Counted from the first letter of the stretch, positions 9,913 to 64,000 are shown. The stretch: 64,000 nucleotides of DNA from Candidatus Nanosynbacter sp. (GCA_015257665.1 JABZJS010000001.1:155526-219525); one strand, 5' to 3'. Notes: a model not told the origin generated them from the sequence alone. Program-made: numbers and translations.

Positions 9913-10125
9913 ATGAAAGACATCGCATTTACCTTGGCGTATGCTATCCCAGCAGCGTTTGCTGCGATCGGGTGTGGTTGGATTGGTGCCAACGCCATGA
10001 AGGCAGCTGGTCGCAACCCAGAGAAGATTAACGACCTACGCACCATGATGATCCTTGGTATCTCGTTTATCGATGCTTTGGCTATCATTGGTTTTGTGGC
10101 CGCGATCGTCGGCAAGGTGATGTAA
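9913..10125 (+). CDS. atpE: F0F1 ATP synthase subunit c
   Basis: 70-aa hairpin proteolipid, GRNPEKINDLRTMMILGISFIDALAIIG. Confidence 0.9.
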   Translation: MKDIAFTLAYAIPAAFAAIGCGWIGANAMKAAGRNPEKINDLRTMMILGISFIDALAIIGFVAAIVGKVM

Positions 10126-10138
10126 GGAGTTCGCACTC

Positions 10139-11097: not shown

Positions 11098-11109
11098 GAG
11101 GAATTATAC

Positions 11110-21343: not shown

Positions 21344-24300
21344 CTATTCTCGCTCTTCTATACGCCGCAGCAGATCTTCCTCAAAGGCGAGAATGCCTTT
21401 GTAGGTGGCTGGGTAGTGGCTGGTGTCGGGTAGCTGGAGGTGAGTAATGCAGTGCCACACGGCGGCGATGAGCTGAGCAAATTCATCCAGCTCGGCCTGA
21501 GAAAAGCTGGTGCTGAGCTGGTGGATAGCGCCCGTGTCCTTGTCTGGCTCGACGAACTGCAGCGTGGCCCCGGCAAAGTCGTAGCGCACATAGTCGCGCG
21601 AGTGGCGCACGAGGAGCTCGTAGAACATCAGCTGCTGGCGGTATTTGTGCAGCTTAATCTTCTCGGCATCGGTGCGACCCTGCCAGCTGCGAGCAGGCTT
21701 ACCCGTCTTGTAGTCTGTAACGGCGATGGTATTGGCAGTGTGGTCAATATCGACAAGGTCAAGCGTGCCAGTAAGGCGAGCATCACCAAGCACGACTCCT
21801 TGGCCGGCAAAGCTTAGCTCGGTCTTTTGCTCGGGACGGAAGGTATGCGCCTCGGCCTGCAAGAAGGCGCTCAGTGAATCAAGCCCTTTGCGGCTAAAGT
21901 ACGCGAAGTCCTCTGGCCCCAGTGGCTGGCGATTAAGCTCTTGCTCAAAGTCGCCGAGGATATCTTCGGCCGGTCGCACCTTGCCAGTGGCAGCAAGATG
22001 GGTGTGAGCACGCTGCAATACGTGGTGGATGGCATTGCCATAGATGGCATGTGGGCTCGGTGCCTGCGGAAAGCGCAGCAAGTAGTTGGTTAAGAAGGTC
22101 GTGGGCCCACCCCGCGACACATCTAAGAAGGCAGTAAGATGGGTACTAGAGAGCTTATACTGCTCGAGCATAGGCTGGAGGAGCTGCTGCAAATCGGGCT
22201 CGGGCGTGCCAACTGGCGCAAGGCGGCGCTGCCAATCGGTGGTGAGCTGGGTGGTGAGGCTTGGCACATCATTGGGCATGTCGACAGTGGTTGCAGTGAG
22301 GTCGACACCGTCGAGGAAGCTGGCCGGTAGTGTTGCTTTGCCAGTATCATCTTGGGTGCTGTAGCTGATAGTCAGGTGATTGCGCGCCCGCGTCATGGCG
22401 ACGAAAAAGAGACGGAGGCGCTCGTCGTACGTGTTACCAGCTGGAGCAATAGCAAGATTATCTGGATACGTGATAAGCGACACTGGCGAGCGCACACGCC
22501 GTCCCCAGGTGCTATCAACAGCGCCCATGATGTAGACATGACCAAACTCTAGCCCCTTGGCCTTGTGCGCCGTCATGAGGTTAATACGGCCGGTATGCGC
22601 CTCGGTGCGCTGGCGGATGGTGGTGATCGGCGTCTTGAACTGCCGGTGCATACCGAGGAGATCGAGCATATCGGCAAGCCGGAGCGTCTCATCATCACCG
22701 CGATACTCCTGGGCGCGGCTGCGCAGAGTCCGCAAGGCCTCAAGACAGGCGAGATATGCATCGGGCTGCTCGGCAAGCCTCTCGCGCGAGAAATAATAAT
22801 CGTACAGTGGTGAGCGGTAACGTACGGTGGGCATAGCAGCGGCCGCCTCGGTAGAGAGGCTAATTGGCTGGTCGAGTTGGGCTATCTGCTGCGTCATGTA
22901 CTCGGTAATCGCACTGGCTATGGCGGCCTGAGTCTTTTGGCTATCGGCTGGCTGCGGGACACCAAGCAAATCATCAAGTACCATCTCAAGCGGTTGATAC
23001 TGCGCCTGCCACGCCATATGGATCAGCCACATCGTTAAGGGTTGGAAGGTGGGGCTCGCCATCATCGCCTCGCCCCACGTTTGGCGGTTGCGCCACGCCC
23101 GGAGGCTGAGCTGCCAAATATCCTGGCTGGCAAAACCAAAGGCCGGGTGCGCCACCAGCTTTGAGAGCAAGCTATCAGCCATAGGAAACTCCCCTGCTGC
23201 TATGGCTTCGACCACCCGCGCGAGCAACTCGAGCACCTGGATGACAGGATTATCAAGAATATTGTCGCGCCGCTCGTAATTGATGGCAATCCCTGCCGTC
23301 TGCAGGTGTGGCACCAGCGCCACCAGCTCGCGGTGACGCCGAGCCAGGACGGCAATCTCCTCGGGCGGCGTGCCACTGTCGATCTGCTGGCGAATCTGCT
23401 GTGCCAGCCATTGGCGCTCGGCTAGGCTGGTGGGCAGCTCGGCGAGGTTGACGGCAGTCTGGGTTGGCTGGTGATGGGCGGTGAGCGTCTTATCGAGCTC
23501 GGGAAGCACCGCCTCTAACCGGTCACCCCCCTGAGTGATAACAGCCCGGGCTGGTGTGAGAATGGCGCGACTCGAGCGGTAGTTATCCGTCAAGGCAATC
23601 AGCCGCACATCGCGGTAATGGCTCCGGAAGCGGTGAATGTTACTGACATCTGCTCCCTGGAAGCTGTAGATTGCTTGGTCATCATCACCGACTGCCATAA
23701 TGTTGGGGCGACCCTCGTGGACCGGACTACTCGTCAGCGAAAAGAGGATGCGCAGCTGCGCGAGGTTGGTATCTTGGAATTCATCCACCATGATGTATTG
23801 GTACTGCTCCTCAAGGTTAGCGCGCAGCTCAGGCTGGGCATCGAGCGCCTGAGCGAGCTGGAGAATCATATCATCGTAGTCATACAGACCAGCCGCACTC
23901 AGCTCGGTAAGATATGCATCATAAACCTCAGCAAGGGCGCGCAGCTTACCGAGGCGCTTGCGATCTTTTAAGACATAATTCCCAGTAGCGTCCTTCTCGC
24001 ACCAGTGGTTGCGCCAGGCGGTCAGTGGCGTGGTCTTGCCACTATCGAGCGTCTCATCGATTGCTCGAGCCAGGCTGAGCGAGAAGCTATCAGCCAGTGG
24101 TGGAATGGTGGGCGGCAACGGCGGCAGTGGCAGCTGAGCTGCCTCGCCCGCCAGCGGGGCGAGCTTGCCGGCCATTGGTTTGCTTATTCGCCCGGCGGCA
24201 AAGACCTCGCTGAGGCGTGGTTCGACAGCTGCCACGAGCGCCTCATCTGCATCGATAACCTGCCGAAGCTCTGCGCTACTCAGGCCAGCCTGCTTGAGCT

Positions 24301-28871: not shown

Positions 28872-29390
28872 CTACGATGCACCATCATACCCGTACGCAA
28901 ACGCCCCTGTCGAAGGCGACAAGCAGAATATATCACCGTGTGACTCTGGGCGGTAGCAAGCAACACACTGACTTCCCTCTCCTGTTGCTGCGCGAAGAAT
29001 GTTGCGCGAGTCGGGTGATGAATTTTGCTCGATACTAAGCAGCGGCGATGTTTTGCCATACTCACTATACGGCTGCCACGACGAGCAGCCACCAGAGCAA
29101 TCGGCAAAAGGCTGAGCTTGGAGCAGCTTCTGGCGTGTCTTCGTGTCTGTGACGTAGCCAAGTACTGTGCCGCTTGGGCTTTCGCGGCTGAGCTGAGGCG
29201 ACCCTTTGCTATATTTGACATCGAGCGATTGCGTATATTCGCGAGAAAAGCGCTGCTTAAGGGTCTCAGTTGCATTAACCCGTGCGAACGGTGCATCCAA
29301 AAGCAGATAAGGAAGGCCGTATGTAATAGTGCCGTACGCCATAAGGAGAACCCCAACGATAATAATCTTTCTTCGAGTAGAGTGTCGCAT
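28872..29390 (-). CDS. Secreted or membrane-anchored hypothetical protein
   Basis: 172 aa; N-terminal signal/TM IIIVGVLLMAYGTITYGLPYLLL; Cys-containing C-terminal region. Confidence 0.5.
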   Translation of the reverse strand: MRHSTRRKIIIVGVLLMAYGTITYGLPYLLLDAPFARVNATETLKQRFSREYTQSLDVKYSKGSPQLSRESPSGTVLGYVTDTKTRQKLLQAQPFADCSGGCSSWQPYSEYGKTSPLLSIEQNSSPDSRNILRAATGEGSQCVACYRPESHGDIFCLSPSTGAFAYGYDGAS

Positions 29391-31975: not shown

Positions 31976-32040
31976 TATAGTCTAGTATACCATGTGTCGC
32001 GAGGTGATGGCGGCGTCGATGGGTGTTGTGTGGAGCTTCT

Positions 32041-34395
32041 CTATTTGCCTTGCTGCCACTGCCAGGTGGTGACCATTGGGTGGTCGGTGTGGTGCTCGCG
32101 TGCGTGGGCGAGGCACTGCTCAATCGCTGCGTGGCAGTGCTCCGTGAGGCGCTGGGTGTCGTCTGGGGAGATAACGCCTGTTGCACTAAGGCAGGTTGCG
32201 GCGGCAATGGCAAGATCATAGCGGCTAGCCTGCTGGGTAATGAGGCTTGTCATGAGCGTGTCGCCATGTGGTGCCAGGCCGAAGCTGCGGATATCAAACT
32301 GCCGACCATCAACCCCATAAGCAAAGAGCGTTGCCGCGAGAGAGCGTTCTTCGCCCGGGTAGGCGATAATCACCGGCTTGGTCGTTGTGAGGGTACGGGC
32401 GAGCGTTCGCCGCGAGACAGGTTGAGCGAGCGTGCCAAAGCCACGTGGTGTGAGGCTCGAGATATTGACGCAGCGTACCCGGGCAGCCGGGCAAGCATGA
32501 GCGATGAGCTCAATAGCGGCCAATACTTCTGTAGTAGCAACATCGCCACACGCGGCTAGTACAATATCTGGACTGGTGTGGCTGGCGAAGTTCCACGTAG
32601 CAAGCCCCGCCTGCATCTGAGCTCGAGCCGCCTTGGTGGTGAGCCAGGTGGGCTGCGTGGTATCGCTGGCATGCAATATATTGATCACCTGCGTGCTCGA
32701 CAGCATCATATCGAGCGTCACCACCGCGCAGTTGCTATCGGCTGGGAAGTAGACCGTTGTGGGGGCGTCTCGCTGATCAAGCACATTGGTTATCTGCTCG
32801 GCACTCTGGTGCGAGAGGATGGTGTTGAGGCTCGGTAGCGGCGCGCTGCTTGGCTGGCTCGATAGAGCTGCGGTATACGAGCGACTTGCCGCGCTCATGT
32901 CCTCATGCAGGGACGCTCCAACGAAGACGCTTTGCCTCCCCTGCTCCAGATAGCCAAGCTGCATACCGCGTAGCGCGCCTGCTGCTGGGTAGCTCATCGT
33001 ATGGCTATCTGGTGCGTGTGGCGCTGTGCTGGGCTGACTGCCCCACTGCCAGGCTCGTGGGTTTGATGCAAAACGCTGAGCGAGCGTACCGCTCTGTAGC
33101 GACGGACTTATAAACAGCCGGAAACTATCTGGTACCGCGTCCTTGGCAAGATCGGTCAGGTACGAACCAACGCGAGAGAGCGTATTGCTGCGCTGCGTGC
33201 CAGGTGGCGTTGCGACGACTGCATAAGGCTCAATAGCCGGCCGGCGTAGTCGCGTGGCTGATAGGGCGGGCTGCGTAGCGGTGAGCTGAGCTGCACCTAA
33301 GGAGGGGTCATTATCGGCATGAGCTGCAGCCGTGTGCGGCAGAGCCTTCGTCTCGGCAAACGTGAGATTGCCTGCTGCGTCAAACAGATTCTCTGGCTCA
33401 CACCACGCAAGCACCTGAGCAAGCCATGCCTGCGTGCGTGCCTGGCTCGAGTCAGTGCCATCTGCTTTGCGGTGAGCAAGCGCTGCCTGTGCCCGGGCAA
33501 TGCTTGATGGCTGAACATCGCCGCTATCATGTTCGGCTGGAGCGAGTGAGTCCTCTTGTGTTTCGTGCTCAGCGAGTAACGTCTCAAGCTGTTCTGGAGT
33601 ACGCACAAGCAACAGTGGTCGACGGGCTTTGTGTGGGCGCGGTTGGGCTGGCTGGCGCAAAGCAGCAGTGCGCTCAGTTGCCCAGGCGAGCGCAGCAGTG
33701 TAGTCTGCGTCTGGCTGGCACGGGTTAGCTGTGGTACAGTCAACGATTCGCGGCTCATACCCATAGCCAATAAAAAGCGCAAGCAGCTCGTAGGTGGAAA
33801 GCGTAGCGAGCAGTGTCTTGGGCCGCAGCTGAATGATCGGGATAATCGTGCCGTCAGTCGCAGGGCTGAGGAGCTTCGCCAGGTGCCACGGGGTATCGTC
33901 TTGGGCGACTGCGCTATCGATCAAGCAGTAGATCACTTGCTCTGGCTGGCCAAGTGCCCTGCCGCTTGCCTGAGCGAGTGCACCACCAAGACGAGCGTCA
34001 CAGAGATGTATTGCGTCAGACAATGAAGTTTGCGGGTCGTGTGTTAACGTGCAAAGCGCATCAATCCCCGCTTGTGAGCGAGCAATATCGCAGCCAGGTT
34101 GCAACATATCATAGACGAGCGCATGAGCGCGTGCTGCCGCCCATCGCTCGCGATCGGTAATAATGAGCGGCGCTGCGCCACCCGACTGAGCATACTCCGC
34201 AATCTGAGCCAAGCTAAAGCTCAGCGCGAAGTCTGCCGCAAGCGCTGCCCGGAGCTCATCCGAGTCAAGCTGCTTTATATCGCTTGGCTGTAACGGCTGG
34301 CCAGCTGGCAGTGTGCGCCAGAGTGCACGCTGTGCTAGCACAGTATAATAGGCCGCTTGCCGGTAGCGCATCGTCATCCCACCATTCGTATCCAT
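32041..34395 (-). CDS. Divergent phosphoketolase-family homolog lacking canonical TPP/catalytic motifs (possible pseudoenzyme)
   Basis: Several blocks align with Xfp by eye: TDGTIIPIIQLRPKTLLATL...LFIGYGYEP, LGGALAQASG, NILHASDTTQPTWLT...AACGDVATTEVLAA, C-terminal FDIRSFGL. The expected GHWGT and GPGHGG positions are replaced (DELRAALA / TDRERWAA). Ala-rich, ~60 % GC. The N-terminus is uncertain; the six-frame ORF extends to 34524. Confidence 0.55.
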   Translation of the reverse strand: MDTNGGMTMRYRQAAYYTVLAQRALWRTLPAGQPLQPSDIKQLDSDELRAALAADFALSFSLAQIAEYAQSGGAAPLIITDRERWAAARAHALVYDMLQPGCDIARSQAGIDALCTLTHDPQTSLSDAIHLCDARLGGALAQASGRALGQPEQVIYCLIDSAVAQDDTPWHLAKLLSPATDGTIIPIIQLRPKTLLATLSTYELLALFIGYGYEPRIVDCTTANPCQPDADYTAALAWATERTAALRQPAQPRPHKARRPLLLVRTPEQLETLLAEHETQEDSLAPAEHDSGDVQPSSIARAQAALAHRKADGTDSSQARTQAWLAQVLAWCEPENLFDAAGNLTFAETKALPHTAAAHADNDPSLGAAQLTATQPALSATRLRRPAIEPYAVVATPPGTQRSNTLSRVGSYLTDLAKDAVPDSFRLFISPSLQSGTLAQRFASNPRAWQWGSQPSTAPHAPDSHTMSYPAAGALRGMQLGYLEQGRQSVFVGASLHEDMSAASRSYTAALSSQPSSAPLPSLNTILSHQSAEQITNVLDQRDAPTTVYFPADSNCAVVTLDMMLSSTQVINILHASDTTQPTWLTTKAARAQMQAGLATWNFASHTSPDIVLAACGDVATTEVLAAIELIAHACPAARVRCVNISSLTPRGFGTLAQPVSRRTLARTLTTTKPVIIAYPGEERSLAATLFAYGVDGRQFDIRSFGLAPHGDTLMTSLITQQASRYDLAIAAATCLSATGVISPDDTQRLTEHCHAAIEQCLAHAREHHTDHPMVTTWQWQQGK

Positions 34396-34491
34396 TGCCT
34401 CTAGTATACACGCTTGTGCTTGCTGACGGAATAGGCCGAGGCGAGATTGTGTGCGTTTACGACGCATAGGCTTGTTTGCTACACTAGCAGT

Positions 34492-35217
34492 ATGAAACGA
34501 CGTGTTGCTAGCCATGGCCAACATTTTTTGCGTAGCCCCCGCGTGGCGGCTATCTTACTGGGTCATAGTACCATCCGCCGGCGCGATACAGTTTATGACC
34601 TCGGGGCAGGTAGCGGCGTCATTACAAGCGCCTTAGCGCGGCGCTGCCAGCAGGTGGTAGCGGTCGAGAATGAGCCACGTGCGCTCGATGCTCTGCGCAG
34701 GCATACCGCAGCCGTGCCACATGTCCGCATCATCGCGGCTGATATTCGCCAGCTGACTCTTCCTGCTGAGCCATATAAAGTATTTGCCAATATCCCCTTT
34801 GCGCTCAGTGCCGATATCGTGCGGATGCTCACTACCGCCCCTGCCCCACCACAAGCGATCTATCTCATCGTCCAGCGCCAATTTGCGTACAAGCTCGTGC
34901 CGAGCGACCGCCACTTTACGGCGGCGCTGGGTGCCCAACTCGCCCCGTGGTGGCAGGCGCGGATCCGCTACCGCTTGCGCCGGACAGATTTCACACCACC
35001 ACCCGCCGTCGATACGGTATTGCTCGAGCTCTTGCCGCGCACCGAGCCCTGGCTACCCCGCAATCAGCAGGCAGCGTACAGCCAGTTTGTCGCGCAGCAC
35101 TACGCCGAGCCGCGGCGCTTCGCTGCCCTGCCGCGCGCCCAGCTTGGTATCAACCCTGAACGTAAGCCATCAGAACTTCAGCCTAGGCAGTGGGTGCAGC
35201 TCTATCAAATATCCTGA
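34492..35217 (+). CDS. rRNA adenine N6-methyltransferase, Erm/KsgA family (Erm-like)
   Basis: HGQHFL...DTVYDLGAGSGVIT...VVAVENE...KVFANIPFALSADIV...AIYLIVQRQFAYKLV. The pattern is closer to Erm (SIPYHLST / DIYLIVEEGFYKR) than to KsgA (NLPYNISTP). Confidence 0.7.
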   Translation: MKRRVASHGQHFLRSPRVAAILLGHSTIRRRDTVYDLGAGSGVITSALARRCQQVVAVENEPRALDALRRHTAAVPHVRIIAADIRQLTLPAEPYKVFANIPFALSADIVRMLTTAPAPPQAIYLIVQRQFAYKLVPSDRHFTAALGAQLAPWWQARIRYRLRRTDFTPPPAVDTVLLELLPRTEPWLPRNQQAAYSQFVAQHYAEPRRFAALPRAQLGINPERKPSELQPRQWVQLYQIS

Positions 35218-54509: not shown

Positions 54510-55490
54510 CTAGTCGAGCTTGTGCTCAACCTTGATGCCGGGCCCCATCGTCGTTGCAGCTGCGATGGATTTGACATACACACCCTTGAGTGAGCTTGGC
54601 TTTTGAGCTTGCAAGCTTGCGAAGAAGGCATCGGCGTTAGCGCGGAGCTTCTCTGTACCAAAGCTTACCTTGCCGATACTGAGGTGAATCGCGGCTTGCT
54701 TGTCTACGCGGTACTCCACCTTACCAGCTTTTGCCTCAGTGACGGCAGTTGCAATGTCAGTTGTTACAGTACCGCTCTTTGGGTTAGGCATCAAACCCTT
54801 TGGCCCAAGCAGACGGGCGTATTTACCAAGCTTTGGCATGTACTGTGGGGTGGCGATCAAAACGTCAAAGTCTAACGTGCCTTTGTCGAGCAGCTTGATG
54901 ATAACCTCTTCGCCAGCAATGTCTGCCCCTGCTTTGGTGGCAGTTGCAACCTCAGCTTCTGGCGCAAAAACGGCAACGCGAACAGTTTTACCTGTGCCGT
55001 GTGGCAAGACAACTGTCGAGCGGATATTTTGATCAGCCTGGCGTGGATCAACACCAAGGCGGACGTGCAGCTCAACACTCGCATCAAACTTAGCAGGATT
55101 AGTCTCAGTCGCAAGCTGGAGTGCTTCGTCTAGCGAGTACACCTTATCTTTTTTAACCTTCTCAGCTAGTTTTCGATAGGCCTTGCCGCGGCGCTCAATC
55201 AGTGGGCGAACCTTTGGCGCGGGCCCTTTCTTGATAGCTGCATCGACATCACCCTGAGGCGTTGTATCGCCAGCCTCTTTGCGGGCTTCTTTCTCAGCCT
55301 TCGCTTCGGCCTCGTCGAGAGCCTTTTGGCTACGCTTACCAGCCTTTGCCACGGTGGCTTCGCGCTGAGCAATGACATCCTTATCGTTTGCGGCAGCGAT
55401 GGCTGCCTCAATCTCTGCAATAGTGTTTTTTTCTGAAACATCGAGTTTCAGCTCTGCTGCTTTTTCAAGCAGATCGGCTTTTTTTGCCAT
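54510..55490 (-). CDS. rplA: 50S ribosomal protein L1 with an ~95-aa Lys/Ala/Glu-rich N-terminal extension
   Basis: L1 core GKAYRKLAEKV...VLPHGTGKTVRVAVFA...GLMPNPKSGTVT aligns with E. coli L1 from residue ~96; the ATG at 55490 gives MAKKADLLEK... Confidence 0.85.
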   Translation of the reverse strand: MAKKADLLEKAAELKLDVSEKNTIAEIEAAIAAANDKDVIAQREATVAKAGKRSQKALDEAEAKAEKEARKEAGDTTPQGDVDAAIKKGPAPKVRPLIERRGKAYRKLAEKVKKDKVYSLDEALQLATETNPAKFDASVELHVRLGVDPRQADQNIRSTVVLPHGTGKTVRVAVFAPEAEVATATKAGADIAGEEVIIKLLDKGTLDFDVLIATPQYMPKLGKYARLLGPKGLMPNPKSGTVTTDIATAVTEAKAGKVEYRVDKQAAIHLSIGKVSFGTEKLRANADAFFASLQAQKPSSLKGVYVKSIAAATTMGPGIKVEHKLD

Positions 55491-55645
55491 AGTACCCTTT
55501 CTGTGGTGCAAGCGGCTTGGGTGCCTCCCACGATTACTCATTAACCTTTCTAGTATAGCATATATGGGCCCTGCAGCATGAGATAATAAGCTTGTACAAT
55601 GCGAAAAAACAGAGTAGTTATTTTGAGCACGCATCACCAATTGTG

Positions 55646-57607
55646 CTATAATAAGAGACGTTGTCGGGGTGTAGCGCAGCTGGTAGCGCGTACGGCTGGG
55701 GGCCGTGAGGTCGCAAGTTCAAGTCTTGTCACCCCGACCATTGAGTCAACACTCAAACCCACGTCATGGAAGCCCCATGACGTGGGTTTTTGCTTGTTTT
55801 TGCTGGGTTTTGGGGCAGGAAGGCCATCATCTGGCAGACCGTACAAGCCTGGCCCTTCTGACACCGAGACGACGATGTCACTTGGCTGGCTCAATGTGAC
55901 TTCGTCGTCTCCAGAGGCTTCCAGGCTGTCGCCATCTCCTACCTCCACACCCTCTTTGCTCAGGCACGGCTCTCCTCCTCTCACCCCCAGCACCCCATCA
56001 AACGGTGGCTGGTAGCGCACCATCGCAGTGAGCAGCCCAGTCTCGTCGTCTGGTGTGATGTACACCTTGTCGAAGAGCACCTGGTTGAGCATGCGCCGGA
56101 TGTGCTCAGGAGCCTGCCGGTAGGCGGTGGCCATGTGCTGGGCAATATCTAACGCTTGCCCGACCAAGGCCTGCCGCTCTGTCATCTCACCCTCCAGCCC
56201 CGTCATCTGCCGCTCCACACCGCACAGCTCACGGCTTATCCGGCTTTGCTCACGCTTGAGGACGTCAAGCGGAATGGCGTCGGCGTAGTGAGCTTGGAGG
56301 AGCTTGTCTCGCTCCCGTTCGAGCCGTCGCCGCACGGTCTTCGCTTCCGTCAGCCGCTGAGTCGACTCTGCTACCAGCATGGCCACCTGCCGCTGCAGGG
56401 CGGTTTCGAGGACAGCTCGCTGCCCAGGCCGCAACGCCACTCGGTCGTAGAGCCGGACGATCTCATCCTCAATCTGCTCCGCCAACGTTGCCCGAAACAA
56501 GCACTGCGGCTGCTTCTTGGAGTGCCGCCCCAAGCAGACGAAGTACTCATACACCACACCGCGGGGCTTCACATTCGTCACGATGAGACGGGAACCACAG
56601 ATCCCGCAGTAGATCGTCGACTTCAGGTAGTGCGCGTGCTTGACCGTCCGCTCACCGTTGACGCGGGTGGCCAGCAGCGTCTGCACCGACTCGTACGTCG
56701 CCCGATCCACCAAGGGCTCATGGCTCCCGGCATAGTGCACCCCTTGGTAGACCACCTCACCGACGTAGAAGGGATTGTGGAGCACCTTGCTGAGTAGCTG
56801 CACCGTCACCGGCTTCTCCGGCAGTGAGGCGGTCGGCACGGTGGTCAGGCCGCGCAGCGTCAACTCTTCGGCCAAGCGCCTGAGCGTCCACTCCCCACTG
56901 GCGTAGGCCGCAAAGGCCCAGGCCACCAGCGGCCCACGTACCTCATCCACCACCACAATGCGCGCCTCCTGGCCATTCTTCGTCGTGATGACGTTGCGGT
57001 AACCCAGCGGTGCTCGGCCGATGCAGCCACCACCCCGCACTTTCTCAGCCATGCCTTTCTTCACCTCATTGGAGAGGTTCTTGGAGTAGAACTCAGCGAT
57101 ACTGGCCATAATGCCGTGAACCAGCAGCCCACCGGGCGTCTGATCGATATTCTCGCTGGTCGACACCAGCCGAACGCCGAGCTCATCGAAGCGTTTACCC
57201 AAGGTGGTGTCGTCGTAGCGGTTGCGCACCAGGCGGTCGAGTTTGTGGACGATGACGTAGTCGACCGGCCGCCCCGACCGAGCCTCCTCCTCCAGGTAGG
57301 TCAGCATCGCCTGGAGAGCCGGGCGCCGCGTGGTAGTGGCGCTGACACCACCTTCGGTGAACTCCTTGCCGATGATGGCGCCGATGCTCATCGCCTTGCG
57401 CTTGTTGGCCGACCGCTGGGCCGGGATGGAGAAGCCCTCCTCACGGCCGCCCCGCCGGGCCTGCTCGCGGGTAGAGACGCGCAGGTAGGACACGGCGCGC
57501 CGGGGAGTCAGCTCCTGGGCCAGCTGCTCGGCCGAGTTTTGGATGGTGGGAGAAGGGGCGGTAGCGCGCCCTGTTGCTCCATAATTAGGTGATAGCGTAT
57601 TGCTCAT
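55646..57607 (-). CDS. Large serine recombinase (integrase of the tRNA-Pro-inserted element)
   Basis: 653 aa; N-terminal resolvase domain AVSYLRVSTREQ (catalytic Ser), recombinase domain, zinc ribbon CGICGSRLIV...CLGRHSKKQPQC and coiled coil. The 3' end of the ORF runs through the tRNA-Pro sequence, consistent with integration into the tRNA 3' end; ~65 % GC. Confidence 0.9.
   Translation of the reverse strand: MSNTLSPNYGATGRATAPSPTIQNSAEQLAQELTPRRAVSYLRVSTREQARRGGREEGFSIPAQRSANKRKAMSIGAIIGKEFTEGGVSATTTRRPALQAMLTYLEEEARSGRPVDYVIVHKLDRLVRNRYDDTTLGKRFDELGVRLVSTSENIDQTPGGLLVHGIMASIAEFYSKNLSNEVKKGMAEKVRGGGCIGRAPLGYRNVITTKNGQEARIVVVDEVRGPLVAWAFAAYASGEWTLRRLAEELTLRGLTTVPTASLPEKPVTVQLLSKVLHNPFYVGEVVYQGVHYAGSHEPLVDRATYESVQTLLATRVNGERTVKHAHYLKSTIYCGICGSRLIVTNVKPRGVVYEYFVCLGRHSKKQPQCLFRATLAEQIEDEIVRLYDRVALRPGQRAVLETALQRQVAMLVAESTQRLTEAKTVRRRLERERDKLLQAHYADAIPLDVLKREQSRISRELCGVERQMTGLEGEMTERQALVGQALDIAQHMATAYRQAPEHIRRMLNQVLFDKVYITPDDETGLLTAMVRYQPPFDGVLGVRGGEPCLSKEGVEVGDGDSLEASGDDEVTLSQPSDIVVSVSEGPGLYGLPDDGLPAPKPSKNKQKPTSWGFHDVGLSVDSMVGVTRLELATSRPPAVRATSCATPRQRLLL
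55665..55740 (+). tRNA. tRNA-Pro (anticodon GGG), CCA encoded
   Basis: Acceptor CGGGGTG/CACCCCG, D-arm GCGCAGCTGGTAGCGC, anticodon loop CTGGGGG, T-loop TTCAAGT, 3' ACCA. Confidence 0.8.
55757..55795 (+). terminator. Rho-independent terminator after tRNA-Pro
   Basis: aaacccacgtcatgg / ccatgacgtgggttt hairpin followed by ttgcttgtttttg. Confidence 0.55.
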
Positions 57608-57781
57608 TGTTTACTCCTTTCATAGTAGGTAATGTTGATTCACTTCGCTCTTTCTAGTAACGCTCCACATCGAGAAAATGTCCAGTCATCACACCGATAT
57701 CACCACACATTCACACGAGACACCGAGAGGGAGGCACTATAGGTAATTGACAGCCACCAACTCAAAGGATACACTTATAGT

Positions 57782-58162
57782 ATGCGTAAATCTCATAGGT
57801 CACACCAAGATGCTCGGCCATCATGTTCCTCTCGCCACGGTGAGTGCTATACCGAACAGCCGGAGGTTGGTGCTACGATCGGGCGCCATGCCGTAGATCT
57901 CGCATCTCCGGACAGCACAGGAGCGACAAGCACAGCCACAGAAACAACCAAGGACGCTGTCACCACGATGGACGCTGAAGCAACGCCTTCCACCACCCCT
58001 GAGGAGTGGGGTAAGCTAACCGAGGAATTCACAGTAACCCTGCACGGCAAGGTTATCCACGCTTTAGTGTACTCGCGCCCTTATGACGACAGATGGACTT
58101 TGTTCACAACTGTTGATGCAGAAACCAATCAGGTCATCAACGCCGAAGTCTCTCTAACGTAG
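57782..58162 (+). CDS. Hypothetical protein (low-GC cargo gene 1)
   Basis: 126-aa ORF (possibly shorter, from MDAEATPST); GC clearly lower than the flanking element. Confidence 0.35.
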   Translation: MRKSHRSHQDARPSCSSRHGECYTEQPEVGATIGRHAVDLASPDSTGATSTATETTKDAVTTMDAEATPSTTPEEWGKLTEEFTVTLHGKVIHALVYSRPYDDRWTLFTTVDAETNQVINAEVSLT

Positions 58163-58179
58163 CCATTCCATCTTTTCTG

Positions 58180-59130
58180 GTGAGGCCTATGACGTCTCAA
58201 GATGATGCAATCGATACCGACCGCCCACCACCCCCTCTTTCTTATCGAATCCCTGCCGCCATTCTCGAATTCATCGGATATTCATCTGCGTTCGTAACGA
58301 TTCTCGGCTATTTTATTGGCCCATTTCCTGAGATTATCCCTCCTCCATGGCGAATCCCCTTAGTGGTTGTCGGGTTCTTGGCTGTGTTGGTCGCCGCATC
58401 GATCACTTCCGCACGAGCCACAACTCGCTACCTATCGCATTTCGACGTTTCTCTCGCCAAGCATCTCGATGATTTCAAAAGCGATGTTGGCAACGCGCTT
58501 GAAGAAGCGACATCCGTGCAAGCGAACGCCGAGGCCATGCGCGCTGCCGGCAAAGAAATTTCCTCGCTCACACACGACCTTCAGAAGTCAGCATTCAAGA
58601 TCAGCAATTCCGACAATCCTCGCGAGTACGCTCGCAATCAGATCCACCAAGCACTCACTCGGTTCGCCCGCACCTATAGCCGTTTGAGCGGGCACGAGAT
58701 GAGAGCTTGTATCAAGATCATCAAGACCGACGACAAAGGCAAACGCGTCGCCGTCACGCTTGCGCGAAGCAACACCACCTTGCTGGACGATGACGAGTAC
58801 AACCTCATCACGCACAACACCGATTTCAAAGCGATCAGTGCTGGTCAGCTGACGTGGCACTCCTCCTCGGTCTCCACCGAGAACGACTACCAAAACTCCA
58901 GCCCGAACCGGCAGTACGAATCTGTTCTCGTCTGGGGGATACGCGATATCGGTAGGCCGCCGCCTACAGATTCCCTTGTCGGCTTCCTCTGTCTCGACTC
59001 AGTCGACGCCGGCGCGATAGACCCAGACAGAGATGCACCTTTCGGCTGGTGGTTCATTGATGCCTTCCGGGCGTTGTGCACGAATGCTCCCGACTCTGTT
59101 TTGGACATCACGTTGTCAAAGAACGATTAA
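58180..59130 (+). CDS. 2-TM membrane-anchored hypothetical protein (low-GC cargo gene 2)
   Basis: 316 aa; two N-terminal TM helices followed by a ~240-aa soluble domain; no recognisable catalytic motif. Confidence 0.5.
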   Translation: MRPMTSQDDAIDTDRPPPPLSYRIPAAILEFIGYSSAFVTILGYFIGPFPEIIPPPWRIPLVVVGFLAVLVAASITSARATTRYLSHFDVSLAKHLDDFKSDVGNALEEATSVQANAEAMRAAGKEISSLTHDLQKSAFKISNSDNPREYARNQIHQALTRFARTYSRLSGHEMRACIKIIKTDDKGKRVAVTLARSNTTLLDDDEYNLITHNTDFKAISAGQLTWHSSSVSTENDYQNSSPNRQYESVLVWGIRDIGRPPPTDSLVGFLCLDSVDAGAIDPDRDAPFGWWFIDAFRALCTNAPDSVLDITLSKND

Positions 59131-59137
59131 CGGTACT

Positions 59138-59935
59138 TCATGTACTCACCGCCCCATTCCGTATCGTCTCCCCGATCTGCTGGTTAGTGATGACAGCGAA
59201 AAGCGCAGCGGGTAGGCGTTGGTCGCTGGCGATGACGCGGCGCAGCTGCTGGCAGCGCGTAGCGCTTGGCACCACCCACAGCACGAGTGGAAAGACACCG
59301 CAGGCTCGCTGCTCGGCCCCACTGGCGTAGTAGGCGGCGTAGCGCTGGCAGGCAGTCAGGACACGGGCGGGGTTCTCGGTGTCGCGGTCGACCTCGATGA
59401 AGTAATGGTCGTCGTAGTGCGGGCTGGTGACGACGGCGTGCAGGTCGGGCCGCAGGGTGAGCTGCTGCCCAGCCGGCCCCAGGTAGGAGCGCCAGCAGCC
59501 TGGCTCGGTGGTGATGGCGGCACTGGCGTCCGTCATGGAGCGAGCGGTCTCGGTTATCTGCACACTGGTCTCGGTGATCGCCAGCAAATGAGCCAAGAAG
59601 CTGATGGACAGGCTGCGCGGGCGCTGCCGACTACGGCTGCCGGTTTGCACGCGGCGCCCACGAGTCGTGAGCGTCCAGATGGAGACGGTAGAGCCGCCCT
59701 GCCAGCCGCCAACCCGTCGCTCCAGGCGGGTGACCAGGTCGTACTCCTGCAGCCGCGCTAGGTGGCGCAGCGTCTGCCGGATAGCGGAGGACAGCGAGCC
59801 ATAAGCCTCAGCTGTCAGGCGGGCCAGCTGGGTCGTCGTCGCGAAGCGGTAGGTGGCCAGCAGCGCCAGGAGCCGATGCGCCGCGGGGTGGTCGCAGGCA
59901 TGGGGAAGATGCTGTCTCATGGTGTCCTCCTCCAT
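59138..59935 (-). CDS. Putative replication-relaxation family protein (winged-helix N-terminus)
   Basis: 265 aa; LLALLATYRFATTTQLARLT...LARLQEYDLVTRLERR pattern typical of plasmid/ICE replication-relaxation proteins. Confidence 0.4.
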   Translation of the reverse strand: MEEDTMRQHLPHACDHPAAHRLLALLATYRFATTTQLARLTAEAYGSLSSAIRQTLRHLARLQEYDLVTRLERRVGGWQGGSTVSIWTLTTRGRRVQTGSRSRQRPRSLSISFLAHLLAITETSVQITETARSMTDASAAITTEPGCWRSYLGPAGQQLTLRPDLHAVVTSPHYDDHYFIEVDRDTENPARVLTACQRYAAYYASGAEQRACGVFPLVLWVVPSATRCQQLRRVIASDQRLPAALFAVITNQQIGETIRNGAVST

Positions 59936-60110
59936 GGTTCGTCCTTCTCCCCCACGGGCCAGTGGTGACGCCAGAACATGGGGTCAGTCACCGCCACTGC
60001 TCGGCCGTATGCCGCGCTATGGCGGGCATTGGTGGCTCGGCTCAGGCCAGCGATCCGTCTGCCGAACCGTCGTGCCAGGCGTCCTGCGAAGGCGGTGCGA
60101 AGCAACGGCA

Positions 60111-62249
60111 TCATCGCCGCCTCCGGCCGATTGGGCTGTCGTTATCCGTCGCTGATGTAGGTGCGCTGGTAGACGTCGATGAGGTGAGGGCGAGCAGCGC
60201 CTGCTCGGTCTGCTCTGCCGGTACGCCGTAGCGCGCGTGGCTGGCGGCATAGAGGGTGGCTGGGTCACGGCGCCGTGCGGCCGCCGGCTGGGTGGTGAGC
60301 GAGAACCAGTCGCTGCGCTGGCCGCGCTGCATCAGCTGGGCGTAGGCGTGGAAGGCGGGCAGCAGCTGGAAGTCGACCGCCTCCAGCTCGGGCGCCAGGC
60401 GGGCGGCCGCCGCGGCGTCGGTGCCTGAGAGGCCGAAGTACAGCTTGTTGCGCGCATTGCTCTCGATCGCCTGCACCATCGCGGGCGACAGCTGCGCGCG
60501 GTACTGATGCGCCAGGTGGAAGGCCCCGCCCAGCGAGCGGGCCTGGGCCAGCGCTTCTGACAGGTCATGCGGCAAGCCACCGATGAACTCATGCGCCTCG
60601 TCGATGAAGATGCTGACGATGTGGCGCTGCTCTGGCGGCAGAGATTGGCGGGCCAGGAGGAGCGTCCACAACTGCGACACCAGCAAGGTACCCAGCAGCC
60701 GGGCTGCACCCGCCCCGAGCAGGCCACGGTTGAGATTGACGACGACGACGCGCCGCCGGGTAAAGAGCTCTGCCAAGTCGAAGCGCGGCTGCGCTTGCCC
60801 CAGCACGGCGCGCAGATAGGGACGCAGGATGAGCTGGCGCAGCTTGTTGAGCACTGGCGCGATCTCCGTCGCTTGCGCCTCCGGTTTCTTGGCGTTGTAG
60901 GCCGCCCAGAAGGCGCCGGTGCCCAGTGGATCGTCCGGCACCTGAGCCAGCACCCACCGGCGAAAGGCCGGATCCGTCAGCAAGGGCGGCAGCCACAGCA
61001 GCGTCGCCTGCGGTAGGCGGACCAAGGTCAGCAGCGCGGCAGATAGGACATCAGCGGTGCGAATGCCCCAGTGCTCGCGAAACAGCGCCTCAAAGGTGCT
61101 CAGCATCGCCTCTGCCGTGACGGGTGCCATCTGAGGCGGCCCGGCCAGCGGATTGAGGCCAACTGGTGCTGGGTTGCTTGGGTCAATCACCACCACGTCG
61201 CGCTGGCGCTGCTCGGGCAGGCGGGCGAGAAAGTCCGTCGCCAGGTCACCCTTAGGGTCGATCAGGAGCAAACCCCGGCCCTGCGCGGCGTCGGCCAGAG
61301 CCAAGGCCAGCATGACGGTGGACTTACCAGCCCCAGTCGGCCCCAGCAGGTGTGTGTGGTAGGCGGCATCGACGATGGCGATCCCTACTGGCTGCGCCTG
61401 GCCAGGCGCGCTGGTCATACCCACCACGCGACGCCGCTCCAGCAGTGGTGTCGACGGCGGCAAACGGCGCGGATGCAGGCTGCCCAGCAGCGGCAATGGC
61501 GCCTCACCGATCGGCCAACCAGTCAGTGCGGCCAACCGACCAGAGCGCAGGCGCAGGGGCCAGCACCAGGGGCGACGGGCCTCATCGATCTTGTCTGTCG
61601 CCTCAGCCACCAGCCGGACGGACGACTGCGCGGTCTCCACCAGGCGCAGCGCCCCAAGCAGCTGAGCAAAGCGCTGGTGTGCCTCAGCACTCGGCCCGCG
61701 ATAGCCGAGCCGGAGGCAGACGGCGGCGCCATGCTGCTCATCGGCTGGTTTGCTGGCGCGGGCGGGCGACTGTGCCGCGTCGTAGCCGACCAGCAACTGC
61801 CGCCAGAGCGAGGGCGGCGGCGTCTCCGCCAAAGAGGCTGGACTGAGTCGGCGCCCCACCAGCAGTTGCAGCACTACCTGCTGCGAACCCGTCAGGCCAG
61901 AAAGGGCAGCATAGAGGGCGCGCACCGCCGCAGTAACGCGCTCGGGCAGGTGACTGACCTGCCGCCCCCGTACCATCACGCGCACCGCCCGCGTCATGGG
62001 CAGGCGCGGCTGCTCGGGTCGGTGCAAGCGTGCCGGCAGGTGATTGCTCAGCAGCGCCGCCAGGCCGGGCCGGCCAGTTTGCGTGCCCACCAGCCAGTGC
62101 GCACCACTGGCGTCGGCGCGCAGCTCCAGCACCAGTGGCCCCAATTCCGTCGCCGTCGTCAGGCGCTCCAATGCCGTGGTGGCCAGTGCTGGGCTGATTG
62201 GGCTGTCCCAGGCCAGCTCCTGCCACTGCCACTGCCGGTGCCCGGTCAT
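60111..62249 (-). CDS. Type IV coupling-protein-like ATPase (VirD4/TraD/TraG family)
   Basis: 712 aa; Walker A GPTGAGKST, LLIDPKGD motif, Walker B region IFIDEAHEF, C-terminal TraD-like HLAHQYRAQLSP. Confidence 0.65.
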   Translation of the reverse strand: MTGHRQWQWQELAWDSPISPALATTALERLTTATELGPLVLELRADASGAHWLVGTQTGRPGLAALLSNHLPARLHRPEQPRLPMTRAVRVMVRGRQVSHLPERVTAAVRALYAALSGLTGSQQVVLQLLVGRRLSPASLAETPPPSLWRQLLVGYDAAQSPARASKPADEQHGAAVCLRLGYRGPSAEAHQRFAQLLGALRLVETAQSSVRLVAEATDKIDEARRPWCWPLRLRSGRLAALTGWPIGEAPLPLLGSLHPRRLPPSTPLLERRRVVGMTSAPGQAQPVGIAIVDAAYHTHLLGPTGAGKSTVMLALALADAAQGRGLLLIDPKGDLATDFLARLPEQRQRDVVVIDPSNPAPVGLNPLAGPPQMAPVTAEAMLSTFEALFREHWGIRTADVLSAALLTLVRLPQATLLWLPPLLTDPAFRRWVLAQVPDDPLGTGAFWAAYNAKKPEAQATEIAPVLNKLRQLILRPYLRAVLGQAQPRFDLAELFTRRRVVVVNLNRGLLGAGAARLLGTLLVSQLWTLLLARQSLPPEQRHIVSIFIDEAHEFIGGLPHDLSEALAQARSLGGAFHLAHQYRAQLSPAMVQAIESNARNKLYFGLSGTDAAAAARLAPELEAVDFQLLPAFHAYAQLMQRGQRSDWFSLTTQPAAARRRDPATLYAASHARYGVPAEQTEQALLALTSSTSTSAPTSATDNDSPIGRRRR

Positions 62250-62486
62250 GACGCCCCTCCATCTGCCCTGTTAGCTGCGGAGTCATTAGCCGCGTCATCA
62301 ACCTCATCGTCATCCGGTAGCGTGGTTTTCTCATCCCGTTGCTGCTCCAGCCGTTGCAGCATGAGCAGCAGCAAGACCCGTGCCAATGCATCGGCGTCCA
62401 GCTCGCTGCGCCAGGACGGCACCGCGCGGTAGTGCGGCCGTCCCTGGTCTCGTCGCTTGCGGCAGGTCATAGCCGCCTCCGATCCA

Positions 62487-62675
62487 TCACCAGCGCTGGC
62501 GATACCAACGCCACACGGCAACTAGCAGCGCCACCACACCGGCCAGGGCCAGCACCCACCAGTAGCGGCAGAGCAGCTCGACCGCCCAGATCAGCAGCAC
62601 CACGCCACCAAAGACGTACACGCAACTGCGGAAGAAGCGCGCCGCCAGCGACCCCATGCCGATTCCATCTCGCAT
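62487..62675 (-). CDS. Small membrane protein
   Basis: 62 aa, 2 TM. Confidence 0.3.
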   Translation of the reverse strand: MRDGIGMGSLAARFFRSCVYVFGGVVLLIWAVELLCRYWWVLALAGVVALLVAVWRWYRQRW

Positions 62676-62696
62676 CAGTCAGTCCTCTCATCGCTC

Positions 62697-63407
62697 TCAT
62701 GACGTGCCCTCCTCGCCAGCGGCATCCATAGCGTCTGTTTCATCGTCAGCCGGAGCCAGCGCCGCCTGCGGCCACTGCCGATCGCTCGGCACGCGGTAGC
62801 CCCAGCGGGCCAGCGAGATGGTCGAGGCGCATTCGTCGCCCCAGATGTCCCAGTGCTGGCGCGATGGCGCCGCCCGGCGGGCGAACAACTCCACAAAGGG
62901 CCCGTTGCCCACCAGTCGCTCGACGATCTGGTGGATCTCCTCCGGCTTGTGCGAGTGCTCCTGCAACGGGTGGAAGCCCCAGTTGGGCTGGGCCCGAAAG
63001 GCCACCCGGGTACCCTGTCCCCGCACGCCCAGCAACAACAGCTCGCCGGCGTTACGGAAGGTGTGCCCCATGGAGAAGCGCGGCTTGGCCCAGAAGTAGA
63101 AGCTGGTGTAGCGGAAGCCCCAGGCCTCCAGCAGCTCGATCCCCTGCGGCACTGTCGCCGTAGTCACCCAGACGAAGCAGAACGAGCGCGGCGCCGTTAT
63201 CTCCCGCACTGCCTCACCCATGGCACGCAGCCGCGGCAGCGGCATCAGGCGGTAGTGCTGCGCCGCCCCGTGACGCCCCATCTGCTGGCTGCACCACGGC
63301 GGATCGGCCAGCACCGCTCGGAACGTCCCACGCTGCGGCGCCCCATCTGCCTGGTTATGCGTGGCGTGCGATTGGCTCGCCAGCGCGTGATTTGTCAGAT
63401 TGCTCAT
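62697..63407 (-). CDS. MT-A70-family N6-adenine DNA methyltransferase
   Basis: DPPW catalytic motif (LADPPWCSQQMG) and MT-A70-like downstream blocks. Confidence 0.7.
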   Translation of the reverse strand: MSNLTNHALASQSHATHNQADGAPQRGTFRAVLADPPWCSQQMGRHGAAQHYRLMPLPRLRAMGEAVREITAPRSFCFVWVTTATVPQGIELLEAWGFRYTSFYFWAKPRFSMGHTFRNAGELLLLGVRGQGTRVAFRAQPNWGFHPLQEHSHKPEEIHQIVERLVGNGPFVELFARRAAPSRQHWDIWGDECASTISLARWGYRVPSDRQWPQAALAPADDETDAMDAAGEEGTS

Positions 63408-63695
63408 TACGATCCCTCCTTTGCGCGCTTATCTGCTATTTGTGTACGCGTACAAAACGCGCTCACACTCCCCATTACGAACCGATTTGCTCGATTTGTG
63501 AACCCCCTCGCCAGCCACAACTCCCACCGACGCGACACGCCACCAGCGATGTGCCGTTCTGGGGTGGCACCACAGAGAACAAAATGGACACGAAGGCCAA
63601 ATAGTGGCGGCGAAAATACATGCTGTAGTTATTGCAACAGGCAGCCAGGTCGGCCCGCACATGGCAATGTGGAGCGCGAATCAGCTGGGCGTCTG

Positions 63696-63977
63696 TCAGC
63701 ACGAGCTGTTCGCGCCGCCTGGCTCGTCCTTGCCGTTGGCGGCCTCTTCAGGCTCCGCAGCCGCCTCCTGCGCCCGCCTCGTCATCGCCACGGCGCTGTG
63801 GAAGGCGGCCAGGTCGTGGGCCTGCTTGGTGGCGATGGCCTGCTGCCAGGCGTCGGTCTGGGCGCGGGTGGTTGTGGTGGGCGAAGTGTCGTCGCGCCAG
63901 ACCGCCCAGGCCAGCAGGGCGATGGCGATGAGCGTCAGGCAGCCGACGAAGGCCAGGCCATTGATGATCCAGCTCAT
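63696..63977 (-). CDS. Small membrane-anchored protein
   Basis: 93 aa, N-terminal TM. Confidence 0.3.
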   Translation of the reverse strand: MSWIINGLAFVGCLTLIAIALLAWAVWRDDTSPTTTTRAQTDAWQQAIATKQAHDLAAFHSAVAMTRRAQEAAAEPEEAANGKDEPGGANSSC

Positions 63978-64000
63978 GGTGGGTATGTCCTTTCTGGTGA

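Follow-up and report, generated by a model that had tools for sequence, protein, structure and literature searches.

The 64,000-nucleotide window analysed here (Candidatus Nanosynbacter sp., GCA_015257665.1 JABZJS010000001.1:155526-219525; positions are counted from its first letter) ends in a segment of high G+C content that abuts a tRNA-Pro(GGG) gene next to rplA and continues beyond the last nucleotide. Reading away from the tRNA, the segment encodes a large serine recombinase, two open reading frames (ORFs) of 126 and 316 aa, a Replic_Relax protein, an ATPase of the type found in type IV secretion systems (T4SS) and an MT-A70 family methyltransferase, together with several small ORFs (Table 1). 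Positions 55,741-64,000 very probably represent the integrase-proximal third of an integrative and mobilizable element (IME) of about 20-27 kb, a span for the family, from left end to tRNA, that was obtained by joining overlapping loci. The family is apparently native to Actinomycetota, and this copy lies at the tRNA-Pro(GGG) gene of a member of Candidatus Saccharibacteria (TM7), between rplK and rplA.

The host of this copy is identified by the flank of the element. The remaining part of the window encodes ordinary housekeeping functions (ATP synthase, an AddA-like helicase, phosphoketolase, thymidylate synthase), and in a genome scan rplA matches at 98-99 % identity were confined to metagenome-assembled genomes (MAGs) of Candidatus Saccharibacteria, with 80/80 of the returned loci belonging to Saccharibacteria or other Patescibacteria. 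The tRNA-Pro gene adjoins rplA in 11 related Saccharibacteria genomes, its body as far as ...CACCC is TM7-specific, and the exact sequence of the 712-aa ATPase is NCBI entry MBF1032330.1, annotated as from a MAG [Candidatus Nanosynbacter sp.]. The small-genome host supposed by an earlier reading made from the nucleotides alone (the sequence-only reading) is thus confirmed as Candidatus Saccharibacteria (Nanosynbacter). The G+C fraction rises from 0.519 (1-55664) to 0.637 (55741-64000), and is 0.676 for 59138-64000; the jump that the same reading had placed exactly at the 3′ end of the tRNA is real, but the finer edge of the element lies slightly inside the gene, since identity with copies from another host ends within the last tRNA bases. 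A whole-window Rfam scan found this tRNA alone.

Table 1. Features at the element boundary and in the visible part of the element, with remnants flanked on both sides by TM7 sequence
Feature	Position	Strand	Basis or remark
rplA, ribosomal protein L1, 326 aa	54510..55490	-	
Large serine recombinase (integrase), 653 aa	55646..57607	-	Pfam Resolvase, Recombinase, Zn_ribbon_recom
tRNA-Pro(GGG)	55665..55740	+	ARAGORN; Rfam RF00005, 61 bits; host gene, attB side of junction
att core CGACCATT	55735..55742	+	Last 6 nt of tRNA plus TT
Element-borne hairpin, 15-bp stem, then TTTTTGCTTGTTTTT	55755..55805	+	Inverted repeat I1, 100 % complementary; in recombinase ORF tail, opposite strand
Inverted repeat I2, 16 nt, 14-nt spacer	55866..55911	.	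Inner edge of ~190-bp conserved arm
126-aa ORF	57782..58162	+	Lower-GC variable insert, absent from variants L157, L159, L160
316-aa ORF, predicted transmembrane segments	58180..59130	+	Same variable insert as 126-aa ORF
Replic_Relax protein, putative relaxase (MobC superfamily)	59138..59935	-	Pfam PF13814
65-aa ORF	59917..60114	-	Between ATPase and relaxase, overlaps both
712-aa T4SS-type ATPase, VirD4/VirB4-like superfamily, putative coupling protein	60111..62249	-	Pfam, Foldseek
74-aa ORF	62246..62470	-	Gene call, upstream of ATPase
62-aa ORF, predicted membrane-embedded	62487..62675	-	Gene call, hydropathy
MT-A70 family DNA methyltransferase, DPPW motif	62697..63407	-	Pfam 2e-24; PADLOC MTase_II 2.6e-36
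93-aa ORF, N-terminal transmembrane segment	63696..63977	-	Gene call; element runs on past window end
Remnants flanked on both sides by TM7 sequence	L013 7230-9747; L016 8218-9750; L017 7228-9749; L021 7507-9750		Contigs of 164 kb to 1.0 Mb

Attachment sites and the recombinase reading frame

The recombinase has a Resolvase domain (PF00239, E-value 5e-28, residues 38-193) in which the motif AVSYLRVSTREQ is present, and Recombinase (PF07508, 8.5e-10) and Zn_ribbon_recom (PF13408, 9e-07) domains that are both above their cut-offs. It also matches a PHROG integrase family (6.8e-81) and CcrB/XisF-like NCBIfam models, and its matches in the PDB are the TP901-1 and A118 integrases, with the C-terminal domain of A118 at residues 273-385. 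The sequence-only reading had described a 653-aa large serine recombinase running into the tRNA; Pfam agrees, and the ORF in fact passes antisense through the whole tRNA gene, although this is not the classic arrangement for integration into a tRNA 3′ end that it was said to be, which belongs to tyrosine integrases. The broader proposal, an integrative element driven by a serine recombinase at tRNA-Pro(GGG), is upheld by the junctions as well as by the protein families.

The attachment sites were mapped by comparing four sequences, written here on the strand complementary to the tRNA (L numbers denote loci). The empty site in L071, which has no element arm and is an unoccupied tRNA-Pro site of the kind that the sequence-only reading proposed to look for in relatives, reads ...AAGCAAAAAATGGTCG|GGGTGACAAG; the right junction, in the window and L015, reads ...GTTGACTCAATGGTCG|GGGTGACAAG; the left junction, in L021, reads ...AAACCAAAATGGTCG|CCCTCTCCCTACCCC; and the attP-type junction, in L015 and L157, reads ...GACTCAATGGTCG|CCCTCTCCCTACC. 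The identity common to attP and the TM7 attB is the 8 bp AATGGTCG, corresponding to CGACCATT (55735-55742) in the orientation of the tRNA. When metagenomes were scanned with the left-end sequence, 56 loci with very diverse outer flanks were found, all of which (56/56) end in TCG, and we infer that the crossover must fall inside CGA, at 55735-55737 (…CCCCGA|CCA), where the acceptor stem meets the discriminator end of the tRNA; attP and attB share only 3-8 bp, and TCG/CGA is the sole part common to all 56 left junctions. Since an att repeat of just 8 bp is what a serine integrase gives, the direct repeat of a 24-nt segment from the 3′ end of tRNA-Pro proposed in the sequence-only reading should not exist; the 24-mer occurs once only in the window, and none is expected for a genuine element. 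At attR, some 12-20 kb beyond position 64,000, one would expect GGGGTAGGGAGAGGGCGACCATT followed by TM7 sequence (the tRNA terminator, a 169-aa membrane gene and rplK). Different members of the family target tRNA-Pro genes of the GGG, TGG and CGG types, and the attP-junction pattern was without a match in IMG/VR.

We note that in high-G+C contexts (many of L096-L147) the left end is preceded (60-160 nt) by hairpin-containing units of about 78 nt, one or more per left end, each ending in TCG and with the translation ...GVFGLAASYPFLLGRLTSKLADVLVV. These could be native A. oris flank or tandem att-like units.

The hairpin and T-run of the element arm look like an intrinsic terminator for the tRNA that would replace the native one, and the hairpin is conserved in all copies and remnants. 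Because the arm re-supplies ...CCA together with this hairpin, the tRNA stays intact upon integration. Inverted repeat I2 is invariant even in the divergent locus L002 and is kept in the shortest TM7 remnants (L013 and L017); it is a candidate for an accessory binding site or for an origin of transfer (oriT).

The recombinase ORF is without a stop codon of its own in every copy, the last ~30 codons of the window copy consisting of antisense tRNA and host DNA, and it ranges from 622 to 926 aa according to context (653-685 in TM7, 669 at a tRNA-Pro(TGG) locus, 672-926 in A. oris). In L157 (4934-7435, protein P0056) an intact backbone ends at an attP-type junction, across which the ORF stays in frame and reads on through the left-end gene to give a protein of 833 aa; the extra 207 residues end in two helix-turn-helix (HTH) motifs, matching HTH_23 (8e-10) and the resolvase HTH_7 (5e-07). 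The same continuity of frame is seen in tandem remnants, and a 50 %-identical homologue, P0153, is also a recombinase-HTH fusion with a similar ...LV|ALS... junction; the context of P0153 was set aside as uninformative, its contig stopping 260 nt past the gene. At the TM7 left junction the HTH ORF is opened by an ATG made from the CA of the tRNA and the next T. As judged from these junctions, integration splits an ORF that would be whole only in the excised form, the in-frame relation alone being expected by chance in 1/3 of cases, and the left-end ORF with its two HTH motifs is a candidate recombination directionality factor. Circular contigs were looked for among the attP-type loci L103, L105, L107, L134 and L157, none of which has overlapping ends; L103 and L105 are regarded as tandem remnants and not as excised circles because their recombinases are truncated.

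Element genes and the class of the element

The conserved backbone of the family consists of the MT-A70 gene, two small ORFs, the ATPase gene, the 65-aa ORF, the Replic_Relax gene, optionally two ORFs, and the large serine recombinase. It recurs in the isolate Mycetocola sp. BIGb0189 at ~54 % amino acid identity, equivalent small ORFs included, and there too the recombinase ORF ends within tRNA-Pro(GGG); database names assign homologues of its recombinase and its ATPase to Actinomyces, Schaalia, Leucobacter, Pseudoclavibacter, Cellulomonas, Corynebacterium and related genera. The methyltransferase, rightly recognized from the sequence by its DPPW motif and also found by Pfam, has the same position in Mycetocola and on this gene order is conserved backbone rather than cargo. 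The 65-aa ORF is called as a gene in most of the fetched copies of the element and may encode a relaxosome accessory protein. For the 316-aa ORF, searches of Pfam, NCBIfam, PHROGs and PADLOC gave no family.

The replication-relaxation-like protein of the sequence-only reading matches PF13814 (3.1e-36, 125.7 bits against a cut-off of 25.3) and a PHROG annotated as 'replication initiation by nicking' (3e-10). PF13814 has been equated with the MobC relaxase superfamily (PMC5357655). The ATPase has a Walker A motif (GPTGAGKST) and matches PF10412 TrwB_AAD_bind (31 bits) and PF02534 T4SS-DNA_transf (21.3 bits) above the Pfam cut-offs, with a further match to PADLOC mad8 (3.7e-16, 57 bits); a PDB sequence search gave no matches for the ATPase and none for Replic_Relax. 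When an AlphaFold model of the ATPase (20-sequence alignment, mean pLDDT 71) was compared with the PDB using Foldseek, R388 TrwK/VirB4 came first, followed by DotL, Cag-beta, DndH-C, HerA and TrwB. The protein has a 280-residue alpha/beta N-terminal domain and no hydrophobic or transmembrane segment. It is a T4SS-type motor at the level of the superfamily and a putative coupling protein; the earlier VirD4/TraD-like assignment, with which Pfam agrees, is retained at superfamily level only, given the lack of a transmembrane segment and a fold as close to VirB4 as to VirD4.

No VirB4, VirB6, VirB8 or other T4SS family was found in the proteins of the window, L001, L003, L092, L120 and L160 (~27 kb of family sequence). 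The closest described elements are the streptococcal IME_Class_8 (Coluzzi et al. 2017, PMC5357655), a compact module of a VirD4-type coupling ATPase, to which the present ATPase would correspond, with, as here, a MobC relaxase, a terminal serine integrase and no mating-pore genes. On the strength of this match and the missing mating-pore genes the element is filed as an IME, so that of the two classes that the sequence-only reading had left standing the integrative and conjugative element is the one to be dropped. The likeness to IME_Class_8 is one of described gene content; those elements belong to Bacillota and the present ones to Actinomycetota and Saccharibacteria, and features seen here in contrast to that class are the target at the 3′ end of tRNA-Pro, the anchorless ATPase, the MT-A70 gene in the backbone and the stop-less integrase ORF. 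Elements of this kind probably put their own coupling protein into the T4SS of a helper, and a single IME was then known in Actinobacteria (PMC5704250, a 2017 review).

Several observations weigh against this assignment or against the integration itself. It is Pfam alone that calls a relaxase, the NCBIfam model MobC_subf, whose cut-off is 200 bits, giving 16.9; the ATPase lacks a membrane anchor, and in fold it resembles VirB4 and defence ATPases (DndH-C, mad8) to about the same degree as it does VirD4; no oriT was identified; the window holds one end of this copy, with attR beyond it; and the final ~55 nt of the arm do not differ between TM7 remnants and intact copies.

As a coupling protein that is no more than putative, the ATPase leaves room for two other views of the element. 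It could be self-transmissible in the manner of the actinomycete integrative and conjugative elements (AICEs), moving double-stranded DNA through a single ATPase of the FtsK/HerA superfamily, with no T4SS and with Replic_Relax as a replication initiator. AICEs use tRNA 3′ ends, and pSAM2 of Streptomyces, an AICE, integrates into tRNA-Pro; the present element is likewise an actinobacterial integrative element at a tRNA-Pro 3′ end, its ATPase is a soluble member of the FtsK-HerA-VirB4/D4 superfamily, the search for T4SS genes yielded none, and the nicking annotation of the PHROG homologue of Replic_Relax points the same way. AICEs, however, rely on tyrosine integrases whose att sites are identical over tens of bp, and they encode an FtsK-like TraB and Rep proteins of their own; nothing of this was found here: the integrase is of the serine type, the element proteins examined contain no FtsK/SpoIIIE, RepSA, RepAM or Prim-Pol Pfam families (E <= 0.01), and in place of FtsK_SpoIIIE the best matches of the ATPase are TrwB_AAD_bind, T4SS-DNA_transf and the structures of VirB4 and coupling proteins. 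The TraB mechanism for double-stranded DNA is moreover described as confined to mycelial Actinobacteria (PMC5704250), and neither Actinomyces nor TM7 forms a mycelium. We therefore regard an AICE-like mode of transfer as unlikely.

In the other view the methyltransferase, the ATPase and their neighbours would be a MADS- or Dnd-like defence module, carried as cargo by a simple non-conjugative island. The mad8 match of the ATPase does outscore its Pfam matches to coupling proteins, DndH-C is among the fold matches, a methyltransferase gene is adjacent, the ATPase has no transmembrane anchor, and other cargo of defence type (AAA_13/PDC-S06 and HsdR) occurs in the family. This view is nevertheless very unlikely, as the ATPase gene overlaps in an operon with that of the MobC-family relaxase, is always accompanied by the integrase across Actinomycetota (54 % identity) and so behaves as part of a mobility backbone that matches a described class of IME. 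A MADS system as such was rejected: beyond the mad8-like ATPase, a search of the 126- and 316-aa ORFs and six ORFs of the left part, which left out Replic_Relax and the small backbone ORFs, found no mad1-7 save a weak mad3 match of the distant AAA_13 protein.

A prophage was also considered and rejected, since none of the element proteins examined falls in a capsid, portal or terminase family; the PHROG matches are to an integrase, a methyltransferase and a nicking protein, with one tail-like fragment far to the left in L092. A nucleotide search with the 8.3 kb of the element had no match among 50,697 phages or 72,556 plasmids.

The left and middle parts of the element are mosaic, lower in G+C and variable in cargo. 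The cargo includes an AAA_13 ATPase that is PADLOC candidate PDC-S06 at 4.8e-140 (L092 3868-6267; L120 6669-9320), a type I restriction HsdR in the TM7-resident variant L160 (1-134), an SH3 secreted protein and Xre-type HTH proteins. A low-G+C element gene of 199/229 aa (L120 11062-11661; L021 8426-9115) encodes a membrane-anchored protein with a conserved GAFVY motif that is 22-31 % identical to chromosomal Saccharibacteria proteins (window 28887-29366; L071 7828-8427). It may be cargo derived from TM7, which weakly hints at traffic in the reverse direction.

Copies in Actinomyces oris and in Saccharibacteria

Exact-protein look-ups identified the element in many human metagenome contigs (L001-L010 and L149-L156), whose nucleotide sequences are 99.3-100 % identical to the window along as much as 8.3 kb. 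At the loci of A. oris context the DNA past the recombinase has a G+C content of 70-73 %, and the flank proteins (Macro, VWA, DUF5682) fall in clusters with members named [Actinomyces oris]. The alignment with the window is unbroken through the element and ends in the tRNA end at ...CTCAATGGTCGGGGTG; beyond this shared stretch the window has the body of tRNA-Pro(GGG) and the A. oris loci that of tRNA-Pro(CGG). One element at the equivalent site in two very different hosts is the strongest evidence for both mobility and site specificity, and its near-identity in A. oris, a mouth bacterium of the kind on which these very small parasitic epibionts live, and in a Saccharibacteria epibiont is direct evidence of recent DNA traffic between host and epibiont.

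Names with the locus-tag prefix 'avisC_' were dropped as evidence for Actinomyces, since the prefix is also found on a TM7 protein. In the public record with 'avisC_...' tags the element ATPase is found together with a 169-aa protein typical of Saccharibacteria (cluster of L160 13341-13850), which suggests a mixed Actinomyces and TM7 assembly in the databases.

Full-length recombinases are joined to TM7 sequence in several independent contigs. L011, a Logan k=31 contig (SRR7448307) that is 100 % identical to the window, leads without a branch from element to tRNA and on into rplA. The recombinase is joined to the TM7 tRNA-Pro in L159, a 7.3-kb MEGAHIT k141 contig; L160 (22.9 kb) has 12 kb of element and then the tRNA, rplA, the 169-aa gene and tmk; L163 has Replic_Relax, ORFs of 312 and 126 aa, the 653-aa recombinase, the tRNA and rplA; and in L162 (2724-4733) a full-length recombinase reads into a TM7 tRNA-Pro(TGG). 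The copies in L159, L160, L162 and L163 are 95-98 % identical to that of the window, and thus are distinct variants, and their TM7 flanks are distinct as well; the arm shared by L159 and L160 has a single-nucleotide polymorphism (SNP) of its own 45 nt from the core.

Older copies are represented by remnants, which are found at this tRNA-Pro in 11 related TM7 genomes and are made up of 190-1190 bp of the 3′ end of the recombinase gene, pieces of internal genes and the left-end HTH gene. Decayed copies lie upstream of rplA in L019, L014 and L015, and the remnants that have both junctions within long TM7 contigs (Table 1) prove that integration does happen in TM7. The sequence-only reading had held that the same high-GC genes in syntenic positions in all relatives would refute its proposal; relatives do carry element sequence at the same site, but as decayed remnants that reflect repeated or old invasion and not native genes. 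As far as the core, the arm in the window has the allele of intact copies, from which the remnants differ by 2-5 %. The same scars are seen at a second TM7 locus, a tRNA-Pro(TGG)/tRNA-Pro(CGG) pair whose flank proteins are named Candidatus Saccharibacteria, and in L095, L128, L130 and L142 (3.1-3.9 kb from left end to tRNA) left-end remnants are followed by low-G+C genes, including an ABC-transporter ATPase-like ORF. L013 and L017 also contain an ORF for a 518-aa membrane transporter-like protein with a G+C content of 68 %.

It is extremely unlikely that the window is instead a chimera of assembly or binning, in which TM7 would hold a decayed remnant and the assembler would have crossed the shared arm into a co-occurring A. 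oris element, for although the window is probably from a short-read MAG, its copy is matched at 100 % identity in other assemblies, the identical stretch of at least 55 nt beside the tRNA makes a mis-join by a graph assembler conceivable and the TM7 contigs L012, L018 and L020 break exactly there, this would not account for the allele of the window arm, the unbranched k=31 contig, the joining of distinct variants (one with its own SNP near the core) to distinct TM7 flanks in four more assemblies from other samples and assemblers, or the remnants enclosed in long TM7 contigs.

Taking the IME as genuinely integrated in TM7, its backbone of ~65-70 % G+C and the restriction of its relatives to Actinomycetota make Actinomyces to TM7 the more parsimonious direction of transfer. 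The 100 % identity points to a very recent event, and the variants of 95-98 % identity and the decayed remnants to older ones. Transfer could begin with single-stranded DNA nicked by the MobC relaxase, which the ATPase of the element would hand to a helper T4SS for passage into the attached epibiont; entry into TM7 by natural transformation, followed by expression of the integrase, is equally possible. Natural transformation of Saccharibacteria is documented (PMC10187176), and a survey across the candidate phyla radiation (CPR) described MobC as the commonest class of relaxase together with a chromosomal T4SS of monoderm type (10.1101/2025.01.22.634366).

A more elaborate scheme, which we offer tentatively and consider doubtful, is a two-way shuttle between Actinomyces and Saccharibacteria at cell contact, in which the low-G+C modules and the shared gene family would have been picked up in TM7 and the state of the element would be sensed through the split ORF. 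Such a shuttle could use the chromosomal monoderm-type T4SS of the epibiont or a helper in the host. The 833-aa fusion of the recombinase with the two HTH motifs would be made only from the excised circle, and its splitting would control directionality or expression.

Related systems and wider context

Among other mobilizable systems, a CloDF13-type plasmid (cited in PMC5704250) pairs a MobC relaxase with its own VirD4-like coupling protein, thought to replace that of the helper, as is proposed here; it is a non-integrated proteobacterial plasmid without a recombinase, unlike the element described here. The phage serine integrases of TP901-1, A118, phiC31 and Bxb1 share with the present recombinase the Resolvase, Recombinase and zinc ribbon domains, a very short att identity and a central crossover of a few bases. 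The known integrases of this phage group mostly target protein-coding genes, whereas the present one is directed to the acceptor end of several tRNA-Pro isoacceptors, in hosts of two phyla, and its ORF crosses the att site. A parallel to the latter is the integration-dependent immunity that Broussard et al. are said to have described in mycobacteriophages in 2013, where attP reportedly lies inside a gene and integration changes the protein made. There, too, attP is within an ORF and the integrated and excised states encode different C-termini; the proteins concerned are a repressor or a degradation-tagged tyrosine integrase, whereas here it is a serine recombinase that would gain or lose an extension with two HTH motifs.

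Analysis of TM7x and its Actinomyces host gave no strong sign of gene transfer between the two (McLean et al. 2020, PMC7427843), a finding against which the present element stands as a concrete counter-example from other strains. Prophages of oral TM7, and phages targeted by CRISPR spacers of both TM7 and Actinomyces, have been reported (PMC7739484; PMC10746230), and full-text literature searches found no description of this element family or of an IME shared by host and epibiont. The type of element is known; what is new is a serine integrase with a split ORF that targets tRNA-Pro, and spread across phyla between host and epibiont. With up to 100 % identity in both partners, a defined site and a decayed trail across oral Saccharibacteria, the element makes DNA exchange between epibiont and host directly testable, and it may account for the reported prevalence of MobC, the most frequent class of relaxase in CPR genomes (10.1101/2025.01.22.634366). 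The mapped attP and the natural tRNA-Pro attB of Saccharibacteria would also be a ready-made integration tool for bacteria that are naturally competent yet genetically difficult (PMC10187176).

The chromosomal surroundings of the site have some features of their own. In related TM7 the gene order is rplK, a 199-aa ORF, a 169-aa membrane ORF, a variable segment of 0.7-2.5 kb, tRNA-Pro and rplA, so that rplK and rplA, usually adjacent, are parted by two small genes, a tRNA-Pro on the opposite strand and an integration hotspot (window 55490-55665; L071 7372-9830). From this separation it follows that rplA must be transcribed from a promoter of its own within the ~175 bp that part it from the tRNA. 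The ribosomal protein L1 of these Saccharibacteria is extended at its N-terminus by ~100 aa, among which Lys, Ala and Glu abound, and the extension is included in all of the 80/80 alignments of the genome scan (query residues 1-4 to 322-326). The G+C content of the host part of the window is uneven, ranging from 0.43 to 0.60 (stretches of note are 32001-34000, 10001-12000 and 22001-24000), and the peak of 0.60 at 32001-34000 corresponds to the phosphoketolase (XFP) gene at 32041-34524, which could be an older foreign acquisition.

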